This document shows, piece after piece, positions 1,008 through 39,614 of a DNA stretch of 64,000 nucleotides. Position numbers and translations under genes: made by a program. How positions within the stretch are numbered: the stretch's first letter is position 1; each line of letters opens with the position of its first letter. Source of the DNA: Bacteroidales bacterium (lineage in GTDB: Bacteria > Bacteroidota > Bacteroidia > Bacteroidales > P3); the NCBI GenBank assembly GCA_045640985.1, contig JAZUFZ010000017.1, positions 18,125 to 82,124 on the forward strand, read 5' to 3'. Below the pieces are notes generated by a model that ran no database searches, had not been told where the DNA came from, and worked only from the letters and a program-made list of their open reading frames with translations.

Positions 1008-1126
1008 GGTAACTCCCTTCTATCTTCTTTTTATCTCCATATTATCTTTTTTTTATCTTTTGTTCTAAGAATTGGAGATAAAACGAAGATAAAAAAAAGA
1101 TAAAAAGAAGATAGAAGGGAGTTACC
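1008..1126. repeat. 119-bp palindromic intergenic element, copy 1 (GGTAACTCCC...GGGAGTTACC)
   Basis: 29-bp perfect terminal inverted repeats. Each arm holds four TATCT (left) or AGATA (right) subunits spaced exactly 11 bp apart (1021/1032/1043/1054 and 1076/1087/1098/1109). A second copy is at 29923..30041. Confidence 0.9.
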
Positions 1127-20131: not shown

Positions 20132-20281
20132 TTATTTCTTGAGAATCACCAACGCTCCTATCACCCCCGGAACCCATCCGCACAACGTCAGTAGAAGTAC
20201 TATCAGAAACGACCCGCATCCTTTATCCGCTACAGCAAACGGCGGGAACAATATTGCCAGCAGAACTCTCCAAAAAGACAT
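20132..20281 (-). CDS. YqaE/Pmp3-family small membrane proteolipid (49 aa)
   Basis: I translated it by hand: MSFWRVLLAILFPPFAVADKGCGSFLIVLLLTLCGWVPGVIGALVILKK. It is below the ORF-track size cut-off. Two TM helices and the family-typical LP.....G and GW.PG...A pattern. Confidence 0.75.
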   Translation of the reverse strand: MSFWRVLLAILFPPFAVADKGCGSFLIVLLLTLCGWVPGVIGALVILKK

Positions 20282-20329
20282 ATCAAAATGGTGTTGTTAA
20301 ATAGTCGATGTTACTTCCTTAATGAAATG

Positions 20330-20337
20330 CAAAGGTA
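20330..20337 (-). promoter_or_regulatory. candidate -7 box (TACCTTTG on the minus strand) for the small proteolipid gene
   Basis: CAAAGGTA on the plus strand, ~50 nt upstream of the ATG at 20281. Confidence 0.3.
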
Positions 20338-20497
20338 CGAAGATTTTTTGATATGGGGAAATTTTTTCCTGTTTGACAAAATAACAGAGATGTCGGGAGT
20401 GGTTTCCCTCCCGGGACGGGTGGTCCACGGGGACGCTGGGAAGGGAAAATCCGGGGGCGGATTTCCTCCTGCTCAAGGTCGGGGTAAAAAGGGGTTT

Positions 20498-20573
20498 TCT
20501 GCGCCTTTTCTCCGCTCTTTCTCCGCTCTTTCTCCGCTTTTTCTCCGCTTTTAGAGCGTAGAAAAGGCGCAGA
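20498..20573. repeat. 76-bp palindrome-capped tandem array: TCTGCGCCTTTTC ... GAAAAGGCGCAGA enclosing 4 x 11-bp CTCCGCT units
   Basis: CTCCGCT starts at 20510, 20521, 20532 and 20543, an exact 11-bp period. 13-bp inverted repeats sit at both ends. Confidence 0.85.
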
Positions 20574-20731
20574 TATCCCGGAGAAAATACGGCAGAAACC
20601 CAGCGTTACCAGAGAGACATAAGGGAGATATGTCGGGCCAAGCCGGGCATCGGACATCCGCTTTTCTTTCGCCTGAGCCTTCCTCTGGATGAAAAAATGG
20701 GAAAAAATTTTGCAAATTGAAGATTATTTTG

Positions 20732-20739
20732 TAATTTTG
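20732..20739 (+). promoter_or_regulatory. candidate -7 box TAATTTTG for sbcDC
   Basis: TAnnTTTG match 57 nt upstream of the ATG at 20796. Confidence 0.4.
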
Positions 20740-20795
20740 CATAATCTTTATCGTTATAATATGACGAAACAAAGTCTTTACAAAAAGAACAGTAT

Positions 20796-22055
20796 ATGAA
20801 AATCATCGCTACTTCCGACTGGCATCTGGGCAATATCTTCCACGGGAACGACCGTCTGCCTGAACATATTCATTTCCTCGACTGGCTCAATACTCAAATC
20901 AGGGAGCATCAGCCGGATGCACTTTTGGTGGCTGGAGATGTGTTTGATAACGGCAATCCTTCTGCTGCCGCCCAATCGGCCTATTACGCCTTTCTGGCTG
21001 AGGCTACTGCCCGCTGCCCTCATATAAGAATCGTCATCACGGCAGGAAATCACGATTCCGCCTCCCGGCTGGAGGCCCCGAGGGAACTGCTTTCCCGCCA
21101 CAACGTGGAAATCAGAGGCAGTATCCACCGCGAATGGGTGTCGGACGAGACGGACGGCCATTGGGAAATCGACTACGACGACCTGATGATTCCCGTGAAG
21201 GACCAGGAGGGAAATGAGATCGTGGTGCTTGCCGTGCCGTTTCTCCGGAGCGACATCGTGAGGGACGCGAACTACTCGCAAGGGGTGAACCGTATTCTGA
21301 AAGAGCTTACGGAAAGGGCTCGGGGAAAATTTCCAGGACTTCCGCTCGTGATGATGGCACATATATACGCCAAAGGAGCAGAAATAGCCCATCAGGAGGC
21401 GAGCGAGAAAATCGCCATAGGAGGACAGGAAGAGGTTAATATGGAGGGATGGGCGGACCATCCGGAATACCTCACCTGCGGACATATACATAAACGCCAG
21501 CATGTGTGGAACACCGACTGGGCCCGCTATACGGGGAGTGTCCTCCCGATGTCGTTTGCGGAAAAGGACTATCGTCATGGGGTAGATCTTATCACCTTTG
21601 AAGGGAACCGTCCGAGGGTGGAACTTCTGGAATACCAGCCTCAGCACCGGCTGCGTGTCTTCCCCGAAAACGATGAGGACTATACCATCAACAAACTGAA
21701 GAAACTCCTTGACGGGGAACTTGCCGACCGGGTGGAAGGCAGACTGTCCGGGAATTTTGAATATCTGGTACTCCGGGTACAGCAGGACCGTATAAACAAC
21801 GACGCGGTGAAAGACCTTGAGAGTTTTATAGAGACAAAAGATGCGGTGCTATGCAAGATGCAGAAGATCAGTACTCAGATTGACATACACACGCTCACGG
21901 ACCACCAGCAGCTGAGAAGTGTTGACGATATTCTCAACCGGGACCCGATGGAGGCGCTGAAAGAATGTTTCCTTATAAGGCAACAGAAGGAACTCAACCC
22001 TAACCAGCTCCAGATTCTGGAAGAAATAATAAATAACGTGAAGGTAAACTCTTGA
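20796..22055 (+). CDS. sbcD: exonuclease SbcCD, nuclease subunit D (Mre11-like)
   Basis: MKIIATSDWHLGN, GDVFD and GNHDS calcineurin-like phosphoesterase motifs. Confidence 0.88.
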   Translation: MKIIATSDWHLGNIFHGNDRLPEHIHFLDWLNTQIREHQPDALLVAGDVFDNGNPSAAAQSAYYAFLAEATARCPHIRIVITAGNHDSASRLEAPRELLSRHNVEIRGSIHREWVSDETDGHWEIDYDDLMIPVKDQEGNEIVVLAVPFLRSDIVRDANYSQGVNRILKELTERARGKFPGLPLVMMAHIYAKGAEIAHQEASEKIAIGGQEEVNMEGWADHPEYLTCGHIHKRQHVWNTDWARYTGSVLPMSFAEKDYRHGVDLITFEGNRPRVELLEYQPQHRLRVFPENDEDYTINKLKKLLDGELADRVEGRLSGNFEYLVLRVQQDRINNDAVKDLESFIETKDAVLCKMQKISTQIDIHTLTDHQQLRSVDDILNRDPMEALKECFLIRQQKELNPNQLQILEEIINNVKVNS

Positions 22056-22068
22056 AAAAAACGCAATC

Positions 22069-25000
22069 ATGAAACTTCTCAAACTCGAAATACAGAACTT
22101 GGCTTCACTTGACCGTCCTGACGGCGAAGTGATAGATTTTGAATCAGGCGCCTTAGGTGAGAGCACCATCTTCAGCATTGTGGGACCCACGGGAAGCGGA
22201 AAATCCACTATCCTTGACGCTATCTGTCTGGCGTTATACAACCGTGCCCCACGCTATCCGAAAGAGAAAGGCGAGCGAAACCAGAAGATAGAGATCTACG
22301 GCGACATGGAAGAAACGGAGAAAAACCGACTTGCCCCTACCGACGGACGCAATATCCTGACCAAAGGCAAGAAGGAAGGCTATTCAAAAGTTACCTTCCT
22401 GGCCAACAACGGGGATATATACCGAGCAGAGTGGTATGTAAAATTCATGAGAACCAATTATCAGAATGCTATCACCTCTCTCTATAAACTGACCCCGGAC
22501 GGAGACCGCTGTATAGAATCCGAGGAAGACTGGAACCAGCTTCAGCAGATTATCGGACTGGATTATGATCAGTTTCTGCGGACCGTACTGATAGCCCAGG
22601 GCGCTTTTGCGGACTTTCTCAATGCCAGCGTGGAAGACCGATACGAACTGCTTGAAAAACTGGTGGGATGCAAAGAAACCTATACTGCAATTGCAAAGGA
22701 AATCAATGCCCGGAAAGAGAAAGCCCAGCAGGCATATAACGAACTGGCCGCCACTACAAAAGCATATAAGGAAAAAATGCTGGAAACGCAGGAGGCGGAA
22801 GCGCTCCTTCAGGAAATCCAGCAACTGCAAGCCTCTGAAAAGAAGTTTTCTGAAAACCTTGAACAAATCAGAAACAGCACAAAATGGTATCAGGATGAAG
22901 AACTGATGCTGAAAGATATTCAAGGGAAAGAAGCCGTGTATGACGCTGCAAAAAAGAACTTGACAAGCATTGAGGATAAAGTCAGAAAGCTGGAACTCTA
23001 CGATGCCATTCTGCCAGCCATAACGATACGACACGACTGGCTGCGTATGGAGGGGGAAAACACCCGAATCCAGAACGCCATCACAGAGACCCGAAAAACT
23101 ATGGACCTCCAGAATAAAGACTACATAACTAAAGGCGAGGAATTAAATATCCTTCAGAAACAGCTTTCCGAAATTCTTAACATGACGGCGGCTCTGACTC
23201 CCCATATCAGGAAAGCCCGGGAACTGAAAGGGCTCCTTGTCCCCGCCCGAGAAAAATTGAATGAAAAAACTATAGCCAAGGAAACCGCCTTCACAGCAAA
23301 GAACGTGGCAGAAAAAGCCGTGGAGGACAACGCGGTAAACATACAGAAAGCGGACGAAGAACAGAAATCGGCAACCCGGAAACTGACTGAATACACACAA
23401 AAAATAGCGGAGAAAAGAATCCTGCTGAACCAAACTGAAAAAAAAGCAGCGGAAGACCTCGCAAAAGAAAACCAGAAGGCAGAAGGGCTAAACTTTGAAC
23501 TTCTACAGCAACAGAAAGAAACTGCCACCCGAAATCTCACGGACTTGAATACCGCTATGGAAACCGTCAGGAGCAGGGATGCCAAGCAAAAGGAACTATT
23601 GGAGAAGCAGCAAGAGGCAGCCGTGCTTAAAGAGCGAAACCATCAACTGCAGGAACTGATTTCAAAACTCACCATCAAGGACCTGAATACCGAGGTGGAA
23701 GAACTGAAAACCCTCTATACATTGACCTCCAGCGAACAATGGGGCCAACACCGGAACCTGCTGAAAGAGGGGGAACCCTGTCCTTTGTGCGGAGGCGTAC
23801 ACCATCCATACTCAGATAACCCAGAACTTTTTAACAAAGTTTCCTCCGAACTGATGTCCCTTCTGCAGAAAAAGAAATCCGAACTGGAAGCACAACGGAA
23901 ACAAGAACAGACCCATACCGGAGAACTGCAGGAAAACCTTGGAAAAGCGGCCGGATTGGAACATTTAATCAGTAATCTGAATGCCGATATCAAGAATTAT
24001 AATGACATTATGGAGCGCATTCACGGAAAGCATCCGGAATGGCCTGAGGAATACACCCAGATAGAGGCTCTGAAACCTTCCTGCGAAGATGCAGAAACTG
24101 CCGCCCGGAAAGCTTTGACGGACTATACCGCCTTGATGGAAAACATTAAAAAACTGACCGAAATCCGAAATACCGCAACCAAAGCATTAACAGAATTTGA
24201 AACCAATGCAAGCAAGGCTTTGGAACAAGCCCAGCAGGCGGTTGCTGCCACCAACGAAAAACTGACTCACTACAAAACCCTGAGCAGTTCCTTCGCCCAA
24301 CAGTTGCACGAGAAACAGTTGTACTATACCCAATCGGAACTTGAATATACGGCTGCTAAAGATGCAGTAGAAAACCTGAACAAACAATATCAGGAAGAAC
24401 TGCAGGGAAAAGACCCAGACACGGAAGAATTTCGACTTACAGAAGAAAAGCAAAAAGTTGATACTGCCATAAGTAAACAATCCGAAATTCTCGAAACACT
24501 CAGAAACGATCTGAGCAATCTGGCAGGTTTCCTTACAAGTCAGGAGAAGATACAACAGGATAACAATGCTGCTATCCAGGAGAAAAAACTACTGTTGGAA
24601 GGGTGGATTAAACAATATAATGAAAGTCATGACGGGACGAACATTTCGGCGGATACCGTAATAGAGCTGATGGAATCAACAGAAGATTGGAATGCTATTC
24701 GTCAGCTGAGAGACGAGAGGTCCAGTTCGCTCACTTCGGCACTTACCCTTCTGAATGCCGCTAAAGAAACAGTCCAAACACATCAGCTTTCCAAGCCCGA
24801 GTTCTCCCGTGAGGAACTTCTGGTACAACAGAATCTGCTGCAGGAACAATTACAGCAAAATCACGATAGTCTCATCGTCAGAAACACAAGATACCAGAAC
24901 CATTTAGAAGCCTCCAAGGTAATTGGTGAACAAGCCGAACAACTGGCTCAGGCAGAACAGGAAAACGATGACCTGTCGGCTATCACTACCGCAATAGGAA

Positions 25001-25473
25001 GCGATGGAAAGACCCTGAGAAAAATTGCCCAATGTTATACGCTGCAATTTCTTATTGAACATGCAAATGCAGAAATCCGTAAGTTCAACAGCCGGTATGA
25101 ACTGATGCCCGTAAAGAATTCTCTGGGCATCCGTGTGATTGACCATGACCGGGCTGACGATATCCGTGATACTACTTCCCTTTCAGGCGGAGAAACATTT
25201 ATCGTGAGTCTCGGACTGGCTTTAGGACTTTCATCGCTCTCCTCCCGCAACATCTCTTTCGGAAATCTCTTTATTGATGAGGGATTCGGTACACTAGACC
25301 CAGAGATGCTGGGTATCGTGATTGATGCGCTTGCAATGTTGCAGAGTTCTCAAAACAAAAAGGTGGGGGTAATTTCTCATACCGACATTATGAGTGAACG
25401 TATCACAACCCAAATCAGGATTATCAAAAACGGAAACTCGGGCAGCAGCCATATTGAGGTTTACCCTAGTTGA
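22069..25473 (+). CDS. sbcC: exonuclease SbcCD, ATPase subunit C (Rad50-like SMC protein)
   Basis: N-terminal Walker A GPTGSGKST, ~800 aa of coiled coil with a central zinc hook CPLCGG, and C-terminal LSGGE.F...L and DEGFGTLD motifs. Confidence 0.88.
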   Translation: MKLLKLEIQNLASLDRPDGEVIDFESGALGESTIFSIVGPTGSGKSTILDAICLALYNRAPRYPKEKGERNQKIEIYGDMEETEKNRLAPTDGRNILTKGKKEGYSKVTFLANNGDIYRAEWYVKFMRTNYQNAITSLYKLTPDGDRCIESEEDWNQLQQIIGLDYDQFLRTVLIAQGAFADFLNASVEDRYELLEKLVGCKETYTAIAKEINARKEKAQQAYNELAATTKAYKEKMLETQEAEALLQEIQQLQASEKKFSENLEQIRNSTKWYQDEELMLKDIQGKEAVYDAAKKNLTSIEDKVRKLELYDAILPAITIRHDWLRMEGENTRIQNAITETRKTMDLQNKDYITKGEELNILQKQLSEILNMTAALTPHIRKARELKGLLVPAREKLNEKTIAKETAFTAKNVAEKAVEDNAVNIQKADEEQKSATRKLTEYTQKIAEKRILLNQTEKKAAEDLAKENQKAEGLNFELLQQQKETATRNLTDLNTAMETVRSRDAKQKELLEKQQEAAVLKERNHQLQELISKLTIKDLNTEVEELKTLYTLTSSEQWGQHRNLLKEGEPCPLCGGVHHPYSDNPELFNKVSSELMSLLQKKKSELEAQRKQEQTHTGELQENLGKAAGLEHLISNLNADIKNYNDIMERIHGKHPEWPEEYTQIEALKPSCEDAETAARKALTDYTALMENIKKLTEIRNTATKALTEFETNASKALEQAQQAVAATNEKLTHYKTLSSSFAQQLHEKQLYYTQSELEYTAAKDAVENLNKQYQEELQGKDPDTEEFRLTEEKQKVDTAISKQSEILETLRNDLSNLAGFLTSQEKIQQDNNAAIQEKKLLLEGWIKQYNESHDGTNISADTVIELMESTEDWNAIRQLRDERSSSLTSALTLLNAAKETVQTHQLSKPEFSREELLVQQNLLQEQLQQNHDSLIVRNTRYQNHLEASKVIGEQAEQLAQAEQENDDLSAITTAIGSDGKTLRKIAQCYTLQFLIEHANAEIRKFNSRYELMPVKNSLGIRVIDHDRADDIRDTTSLSGGETFIVSLGLALGLSSLSSRNISFGNLFIDEGFGTLDPEMLGIVIDALAMLQSSQNKKVGVISHTDIMSERITTQIRIIKNGNSGSSHIEVYPS

Positions 25474-29740: not shown

Positions 29741-29776
29741 TCCGCAGAAATTATTTTCTTTTTCATAGTGAAGATA

Positions 29777-29803
29777 GAAGCCTCGCAAGGGCTTCTTTCT
29801 TCT
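29777..29803 (+). terminator. candidate rho-independent terminator after the Kal-like gene
   Basis: GAAGCC-TCGCAAG-GGCTTC stem-loop followed by TTTCTTCTTATT. Confidence 0.5.
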
Positions 29804-29922
29804 TATTATACCCTCTGGCAGTATTAATCTATAGTTTTATTCTGGAAATCCTTGGTTCTCAGTCTGCGCGCGGTCGCTCCGTTGTGCTTGGCGCAGAACC
29901 ACCACCGGGGACTCCGCACCGC

Positions 29923-30041
29923 GGTAACTCCCTTCTATCTTCTTTTTATCTCCATATTAACTTCTTTTTATCTCCTTTCCTTAGAATAAGAGATAGAAAA
30001 AAGATAAACTGGAGATAAAAAGAAGATAGAAGGGAGTTACC
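29923..30041. repeat. 119-bp palindromic intergenic element, copy 2
   Basis: Perfect 31-bp terminal inverted repeats, GGTAACTCCCTTCTATCTTCTTTTTATCTCC and its reverse complement. The first 38 nt are identical to copy 1 (1008..). It lies between convergent genes. Confidence 0.9.
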
Positions 30042-30131
30042 ACTTACAAATGACTATATTACAGCAGAAAAAAATCTGCTTCTTTACAAGAGCAATTAAC
30101 CGATTAATTCATTTCGACGGGTATTTATCCC

Positions 30132-39458: not shown

Positions 39459-39550
39459 AGCCGGACAGAGACGATATCAACATCTACGCAAGATATGATA
39501 AACCGGTTTTTTACGGCATTTTCGCTATTCTATTGATTCATAGCAAGAAT

Positions 39551-39614
39551 CATCCGACGTTCATCCGACAGAAACCGACATCAATGTCGGTTCATGTCGG
39601 ATGAATGTCGGATG
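39551..39614. repeat. 64-bp imperfect palindrome built from 3 x 11-bp CATCCGAC-type units per arm
   Basis: Left arm CATCCGACGTTCATCCGACAGAAACCGACAT. The reverse complement of the right arm is CATCCGACATTCATCCGACATGAACCGACAT. Units start at 39551, 39562 and 39573. 2-nt loop. Confidence 0.85.

Follow-up and report, generated by a model that had tools for sequence, protein, structure and literature searches.

The REP, BIME and REPIN repeats of Proteobacteria resemble the element described below in being short, non-coding, intergenic, palindromic, multi-copy and lineage-specific, in forming mosaics with other repeat modules, in being spread over the whole chromosome and in an action thought to be exerted through DNA structure and topology. 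Their partner is the RAYT Y1 transposase, and some of them bind gyrase or IHF. They are however 20-40 bp hairpins carrying a GTAG or CGTC tag, whereas the present element has arms of 50-70 bp made up of 11-bp units. Inverted arms composed of short tandem units are also characteristic of the Drosophila Foldback (FB) elements, in which unit number likewise differs from copy to copy and from arm to arm, but these belong to eukaryotes, are kilobase-sized, some of them contain genes and they produce target duplications, all unlike the 11-bp foldback, and no link by descent is implied. Exact 11-bp phasing around a promoter region is furthermore found in parC of plasmid R1, where ten 11-bp iterons are bound by ParR, although parC is a single locus of direct units beside parMR, whereas 175 chromosomal loci without par genes are found here. 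Finally, the BOX repeats of Streptococcus pneumoniae, with the structure boxA-(boxB)n-boxC, are modular, intergenic and foldable and have a variable internal tandem module, but their modules are 45-59 bp long, and they show neither a one-turn period nor a dyad of unit arrays. A search of the literature found no published description of a foldback repeat such as the one reported here, and the published intrastrand triplex repeats proved not to be relevant.

The element in question lies upstream of sbcD in the genome of an uncultured gut Bacteroidales bacterium (G000), within a 64,000-nucleotide stretch of one contig that was analysed as a whole and is referred to as the window.

The element between pmp3 and sbcD

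The spacer between the divergent pmp3 and sbcD genes measures 514 bp (Table 1), in good agreement with the divergent region of about 510 bp that the original prediction had placed between a small proteolipid gene, now assigned to the Pfam family Pmp3, and sbcD. The 13-bp inverted arms that had been read from the letters of the sequence are exact, and so are the four CTCCGCT units, which start at positions 20510, 20521, 20532 and 20543 and are thus in register with spacings of 11, 11 and 11 bp. TRF and a repeat search agree on this, the latter also detecting an inverted repeat (27 nt, 89%), and identity at lag 11 inside the array reaches 0.91 (z = 7.4 vs shuffles). A palindrome is therefore present where it had been placed, but the limits given for it were too narrow, since the foldback extends over the 128 bp listed in Table 1. 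This extent was set by aligning the seven genomic copies outward from the centre in steps of 11 bp, and the same in-register comparison gives a left arm of 70 bp and a right arm of 58 bp, both in the 11-bp register. By self-BLAST the repeated stretch is 20492-20598. The predicted fold of the whole element has an energy of -53.2 kcal/mol (z = -4.3), with GGUAA pairing with UUACC at the base of the hairpin, and a long hairpin is predicted from either strand (z = -4.3 and -3.3). An assembly artefact is ruled out, because nine other conspecific metagenome contigs spanning the whole spacer carry the element; the tenth contig, L060, breaks off within the array.

Table 1. Features of the spacer between pmp3 and sbcD and of the adjoining genes (positions in the window)
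Feature	Position	Strand	Details
pmp3, small membrane protein gene of the pmp3 family	20132-20281	-	49 aa; PF01679
Promoter box facing pmp3, TACCTTTG	20330-20337	-	Bacteroidetes-type -7 box
Left flank	20386-20483		G-rich (42% G), unique sequence, non-periodic
Whole element	20483-20610		128-bp imperfect foldback; ends GGTAA (20483-20487) and TTACC (20606-20610)
Tandem array of TTTTCTCCGCT-type 11-bp units	20495-20552	+	TRF: period 11, 5.3 copies, 91% matches, score 88
Left perfect arm, TCTGCGCCTTTTC	20498-20510		13 bp; sequence match
Central hairpin with family signature TCTCCGCTTTTAGAGCG	20539-20558		CGCT 20546-20549, loop 20550-20554, AGCG 20555-20558
Right arm	20553-20610	-	In-register comparison; minus-strand reading is GGTAAC followed by degenerate TTTCTSCG-type units
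Right perfect arm, GAAAAGGCGCAGA	20561-20573		13 bp; exact complement of TCTGCGCCTTTTC; sequence match
Right flank	20611-20690		Mostly unique; two degenerate GAGAT-type units (20610-20637) weakly matching arrays elsewhere
Promoter box facing sbcD, TAATTTTG	20732-20739	+	Bacteroidetes-type -7 box
sbcD	20796-22055	+	419 aa, Metallophos; followed by sbcC

The notion that the palindrome is framed by flanking repeats is not borne out. The flanks are indeed G-rich, and CCGG words are present in both of them, but neither holds a significant periodic repeat (lag-11 z = -1.4 and 2.0), and they are not shared by the other six copies of the element. A 12-bp direct repeat at 20386 and 20626 was considered as a target duplication and rejected, since ATGTCGG is a repeat word that is also found elsewhere.

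Each side of the element has one -7 box, both boxes pointing outward at 152-160 bp from the core, and both were called with the Bacteroidetes consensus, TAnnTTTG. If these are the sole promoters of the spacer the element is not transcribed, since it sits between them. About 20 bp upstream of the -7 box, both divergent promoters have GGAAAAAATTT, arranged as mirror images (20353-20370 and 20699-20712), and this likeness of the pmp3 and sbcD promoter regions is probably ordinary promoter architecture.

The two genes and sbcC (pmp3 and sbcDC, 20132-25473) look like accessory insertions beside the phosphoglucomutase (PGM) operon. An sbcD of this type was found in two of 40 other genomes of the genus and pmp3 next to PGM in none of 25, and the genus genomes compared offered no clean empty site at the pmp3/sbcD locus. 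In another species, G053, the region upstream of sbcD (L049:1285-1410) has a 27-bp tandem repeat of about 4.5 copies in place of the 11-bp foldback.

Families of 11-bp units and their spacing

As the original prediction required, lag-11 periodicity is enriched genome-wide, and it is so in intergenic DNA only: intergenic identity peaks at lags 11, 22 and 33, being 0.296 at lag 11 vs 0.275 at lag 10 and 0.284 at lag 12, and coding DNA is without such peaks. TRF returns 282 arrays of period 11 and 112 of period 22, the numbers for periods 10 and 12 being 109 and 126. Period-11 arrays lie outside ORFs in 85% of cases vs 45% for other periods (313 arrays counted), and 51% of them are capped by their own unit in inverted orientation no more than 30 bp away (control 24%), such a cap being found on just one of 29 arrays of period 9 and on none of 43 of period 12. 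When the 156 non-coding arrays of period 11 that reach 2.5 copies or more are clustered by word, just ten clusters result, and the period is therefore a property of a few families rather than something made afresh at each site.

The element upstream of sbcD belongs to a sub-family with seven copies in this genome, all of them intergenic, with lengths of 95 bp (one copy), 117 bp (four copies) and 128 bp (two copies) that differ by whole units; the usual length of 117 bp corresponds to about five units per arm. The arm ends are in phase across the seven copies and read GGTAA in 11 of 14 cases and AGTAA, GATAA or GGTAT in the remaining three, and the central hairpin signature TCTCCGCTTTTAGAGCG is common to all seven copies and to copies in three other species. 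The spacers that hold the copies all bear promoters, five being divergent, two tandem and none convergent. Neighbour genes vary from copy to copy, and the distance from copy to promoter box ranges from 66 to 353 bp, so that there is no fixed operator geometry.

The other sites in the window belong to a family of 119-bp GGTAACTCCC palindromes, which is represented in the genome by 58 complete copies (52 with a length of exactly 119 bp), GGTAACTCCC itself occurring 179 times vs 3.7 expected; the genome also has GGTAWCTCY arrays. The original prediction considered the element to share a design with these other sites but to be unrelated to them in sequence, with a core word of its own. The shared design is real, but the words are related and the claim of unrelated sequence does not hold, since the element and the 119-bp palindromes have in common their GGTAA ends, a WTCTCC unit core and their length (117 vs 119 bp). 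Furthermore, the right arms of two sister copies hold canonical GGTAACTCCGT and GGTATCTCCGT units, a TTTTCTCCGC unit directly abuts several of the 119-bp palindromes, and arrays elsewhere in the genome mix GGTTTCTCC with GGTATCTCT units. The shared ends, core, units and length point to common descent over convergence, and the element upstream of sbcD thus represents a diverged sub-family of the main families of 11-bp units, which are the GGTAWCTCY arrays and the GGTAACTCCC palindromes of 119 bp.

Units of 11 bp are also part of a non-coding composite of about 1.2 kb, found at C1:22495-23742 (L061) and in at least seven further places of this genome at 80-92% identity, which is made up of 8-bp and 11-bp tandem arrays, a 34-bp REP and a GGGTAACTCCG module and lacks any ORF reaching 130 aa. 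Around another site in the window (29741-30131; L096-L105), contigs with an identical 130-aa thioesterase-like protein differ in the gene that follows, which encodes OmpH, a 349-aa protein, a 428-aa Mfa2-like protein (in this genome, with a 119-bp palindrome) or a 668-aa T9SS protein.

Along the chromosome the 175 non-coding array loci are over-dispersed, with 12.7% of gaps below 5 kb vs 31-33% expected and a gap CV of 0.61 vs 0.86-0.92 expected, values that were reached in none of 1000 and 2000 simulations but that derive from a 50-contig MAG whose contigs are often broken at 11-bp repeats and in which some short gaps may be missing. Their density is about one per 10-13 kb, and in the window the 11-bp-array loci at 1021, 20495, 29990, 39415 and 58467 are separated by gaps of 19.5, 9.5, 9.4 and 19.1 kb. 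Different families also avoid each other along the chromosome (P = 0.02-0.04). For the six copies of the sub-family that could be classified, the nearest locus of another family is 9.5-29.6 kb away, so that not one of them has such a locus within 5 kb, vs 51% expected (P = 0.016). The suggestion that each core word forms a pair with a cognate protein of its own is not supported, since no cognate protein was found and since the mutual avoidance of families with different words argues for interchangeable elements and not for separate protein/site pairs.

Variation between strains and species

All ten conspecific contigs have the element at the sbcD site, with no difference in presence or absence, and their alignment shows that the array is exactly one unit shorter (an 11-bp gap) in all other strains read. 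A second whole-unit change was seen in public run X2, in which exactly 11 bp are missing at 39550-39560 in a palindrome of CATCCGAC units, and unit number is most simply explained as changing by whole units through replication slippage. The Logan contigs of four runs break inside the array and for this reason yielded no insertion polymorphism.

A scan of genome contigs for the exact pattern of three adjacent units gave no match, this pattern being too strict, and it was the looser central-hairpin pattern that found relatives, namely in four of 143 genomes of the genus, with seven places in this genome, six in G044, three in G184 and one in G202. The GGTAWCTCY doublet, for its part, occurs 123 times in this genome and a single time across 150 further genomes of the family. 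Between two species with PGM proteins of only about 75% identity, the central hairpins agree at 19 of 20 positions, and to judge from this comparison it appears that something reads the sequence of the central hairpin or keeps it uniform.

One of the G044 copies lies upstream of the PGM gene in the same orientation, only 62 bp of it being alignable, and another sits where this genome has a 119-bp palindrome (window 1008-1126), while for the majority of copies in other species the corresponding site is here either empty or filled by another family. The flanks are too diverged in these comparisons between species to define the boundaries of the element. Three of the G044 copies have about 240 bp in common, flanks included, which suggests a recent spread. 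The spacer upstream of PGM is occupied in about seven of 24 relatives, which equals the background (175 of 636 spacers) and counts against the structural reading given below. Two sampled genomes of the same genus likewise have period 11 among their top TRF classes, with different words and the same arrangement of units and an inverted cap.

Relation to known classes and possible function

We can conclude that a non-coding foldback repeat of 11-bp units, dispersed over the genome, has one of its copies upstream of sbcD. It is like REP sequences in being multi-copy, extragenic and lineage-restricted (seven intergenic copies; four of 143 genus genomes), but in place of their hairpin it has arms of 58-70 bp made of 11-bp units and the ends GGTAA/TTACC, and assignment to the REP/REPIN-RAYT class was rejected. 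A cognate RAYT was likewise rejected, since the only Y1 gene of this genome (NF047646, 62.9 bits, cut-off 80) has another palindrome, one of 34 bp, in five copies around it. No Y1 match was found in G019, G142 and G202, of which the first two carry 11-bp arrays and the third one central hairpin, and the presence of Y1 genes in 88 of 143 genus genomes is unrelated to the distribution of the sub-family. The foldback repeats are thus independent of a RAYT gene.

The Y1 gene of this genome encodes a RAYT-like protein of 318 aa and is bracketed by 34-bp TATCATCAAGGGGTC..-type palindromes (C8:2990-4150, L087), which have about 20 copies genome-wide; a classical REP/RAYT pair hence exists beside the 11-bp foldback families. 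In G184 one Y1 gene that was examined (L170, G184:C9:1-1150) is flanked by tandem 69-bp units with a CCAGCC..GGCTGG hairpin, and 12 arrays of period 69 are present in G000.

Our preferred reading, to which we give about an even chance, is that the element, as a diverged sub-family of a dispersed non-coding foldback, acts as a DNA-structure site in a chromosome-wide set. It most likely acts as DNA, rather than as RNA or protein, and as a structural site recognised by its shape. Units of one helical turn would bring the same helix face and the same bend forward at every unit, dyad symmetry would make of the arrays a two-fold symmetric site of about 120 bp, and a host protein, either a topoisomerase or a nucleoid protein, might wrap this site or bind it by shape. 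Alternatively, a cruciform might be extruded by the negative supercoiling that divergent promoters are expected to create between them, but this is disfavoured by the unequal arms (70 vs 58 bp). A role in binding gyrase is argued against by the position of the sub-family, since gyrase sites are expected downstream of genes and the sub-family sits upstream. The element would accordingly be conceived as a member of a chromosome-wide set and not as a dedicated regulator of sbcD. Whole-turn units would furthermore keep the flanking sites in rotational phase when unit number changes, which may explain why a unit length of 11 bp is tolerated upstream of promoters. The predicted set, with a dyad of about 120 bp, one-turn phasing and an even spacing of about 10 kb, would be comparable to the BIMEs of E. 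coli. The even spacing could however also stem from target immunity of a mobile element, or from rearrangements between neighbouring repeats being selected against.

The first of these possibilities is part of the main rival to a structural role, namely that the element is a selfish, non-autonomous mobile foldback, MITE-like or Foldback-like, which would make the copy upstream of sbcD a passenger. A trans-acting enzyme would in this case recognise units of the GGTAWCTCC type, and the repeated binding sites would provide target immunity and thereby even spacing. Such mobility is in agreement with the occurrence of multiple near-identical copies that have their ends in common within unrelated flanks, with the lineage-specific words, with the patchy distribution in the genus and the location of copies at other sites in related species, with the three G044 copies that are alike beyond the element itself, and with the avoidance between families that have a unit core in common. 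The architecture also fits, the arms being inverted over their whole length as arrays of short tandem units in variable number, with GGTAA or a one-base variant at 14 of 14 ends. It is however in poor agreement with the absence of target-site duplications, none of which were found beside the ends of the seven copies or of 46 listed copies of the 119-bp family, with the constant presence at the sbcD site among the ten conspecific contigs, and with the fact that no element with GGTAA-type ends has a gene inside. Nor was an autonomous partner with the same ends found in this genome: it is without a match to rve or TnpB, and its transposase and recombinase genes are two small IS4/IS5-type genes without GGTAA ends, three tyrosine recombinases and the one Y1 gene, which has its own REP; IS elements with GGTAA ends were not found. 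The idea that the repeats are the ends of PF05635 gene cassettes was also rejected, as two of the three PF05635 genes of this genome were examined and have no such flanks. Taken together, we consider mobility doubtful, although it is a serious candidate.

That the element is an operator array, in which each core word is bound by an iteron-type protein of its own, for example a ribbon-helix-helix protein like ParR, and that the present copy co-regulates pmp3 and sbcDC, seems improbable. Cooperative iteron binding, as at the 11-bp iterons of parC in plasmid R1, typically involves such exact phasing by one turn, the copies of the sub-family lie upstream of promoters, and the central hairpin has been kept between species in which PGM is only about 75% identical; but the neighbours differ from copy to copy, no regulator gene is found beside the copy upstream of sbcD, promoter spacing is variable and unit number differs between strains. 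In addition, the words are not independent, having core and ends in common, families with different words keep apart as equivalent elements would, and sbcD and pmp3 are not found at this locus in other members of the genus, the related G044 copy being upstream of PGM. A parC/ParR-type centromere or operator was rejected although 11-bp phased iterons are present, as the adjacent genes, pmp3 and sbcD, do not encode a binding protein and as there are 175 loci. An action at the RNA level, with the transcribed hairpin serving as terminator, stabiliser or small RNA, is less probable still: the long hairpin fold on either strand would speak for it, but the element lies between two outward-facing promoter boxes, no copy of the sub-family is found between convergent genes, the gain of a unit in one arm breaks the symmetry of the stem, and no RNA run holding this organism was found. 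An intrinsic terminator in particular was rejected, there being no terminator-like site at the element and no T-run after the hairpin, with divergent promoters around it. Rfam 15 furthermore gave nothing but generic hairpin noise from miRNA models, both for the whole window at gathering thresholds and for the region of the element at permissive ones, and no family reached its gathering threshold at the element. Finally, in other strains an ORF of 107 aa (20288-20611) is called across the repeat, and indeed in all contigs that reach it, but that it should be a small protein-coding gene is hardly credible: the extra unit of 11 bp shifts the frame and truncates the ORF to 88 aa here, no Pfam match was found, and the frame would cross a repeat found at seven unrelated sites and in either orientation. 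The 107-aa ORF is almost certainly a false gene call.

Returning to the DNA-structure site, it is tempting to extend it to a more general, and clearly more tentative, proposal. The palindrome upstream of sbcD may be one site of an undescribed class of repeats in uncultured Bacteroidales, consisting of foldbacks of about 120 bp with 11-bp units and fast-evolving, interchangeable words, present about once per 10 kb and either recognised by shape by a topology or nucleoid protein or spread independently of RAYT with target immunity. For annotation, the foldbacks explain the spurious small ORFs in these spacers as well as many of the contig breaks in MAGs. If true, the proposal would mean that a 2.2-Mb genome has about 175 evenly spaced marked sites, each with a one-turn ruler, and that there is a second, RAYT-independent kind of dispersed palindromic repeat in bacteria. 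If the class is as it appears, it would furthermore provide a sequence-defined handle on chromosome organisation in a large group of abundant uncultured bacteria of the gut and rumen.
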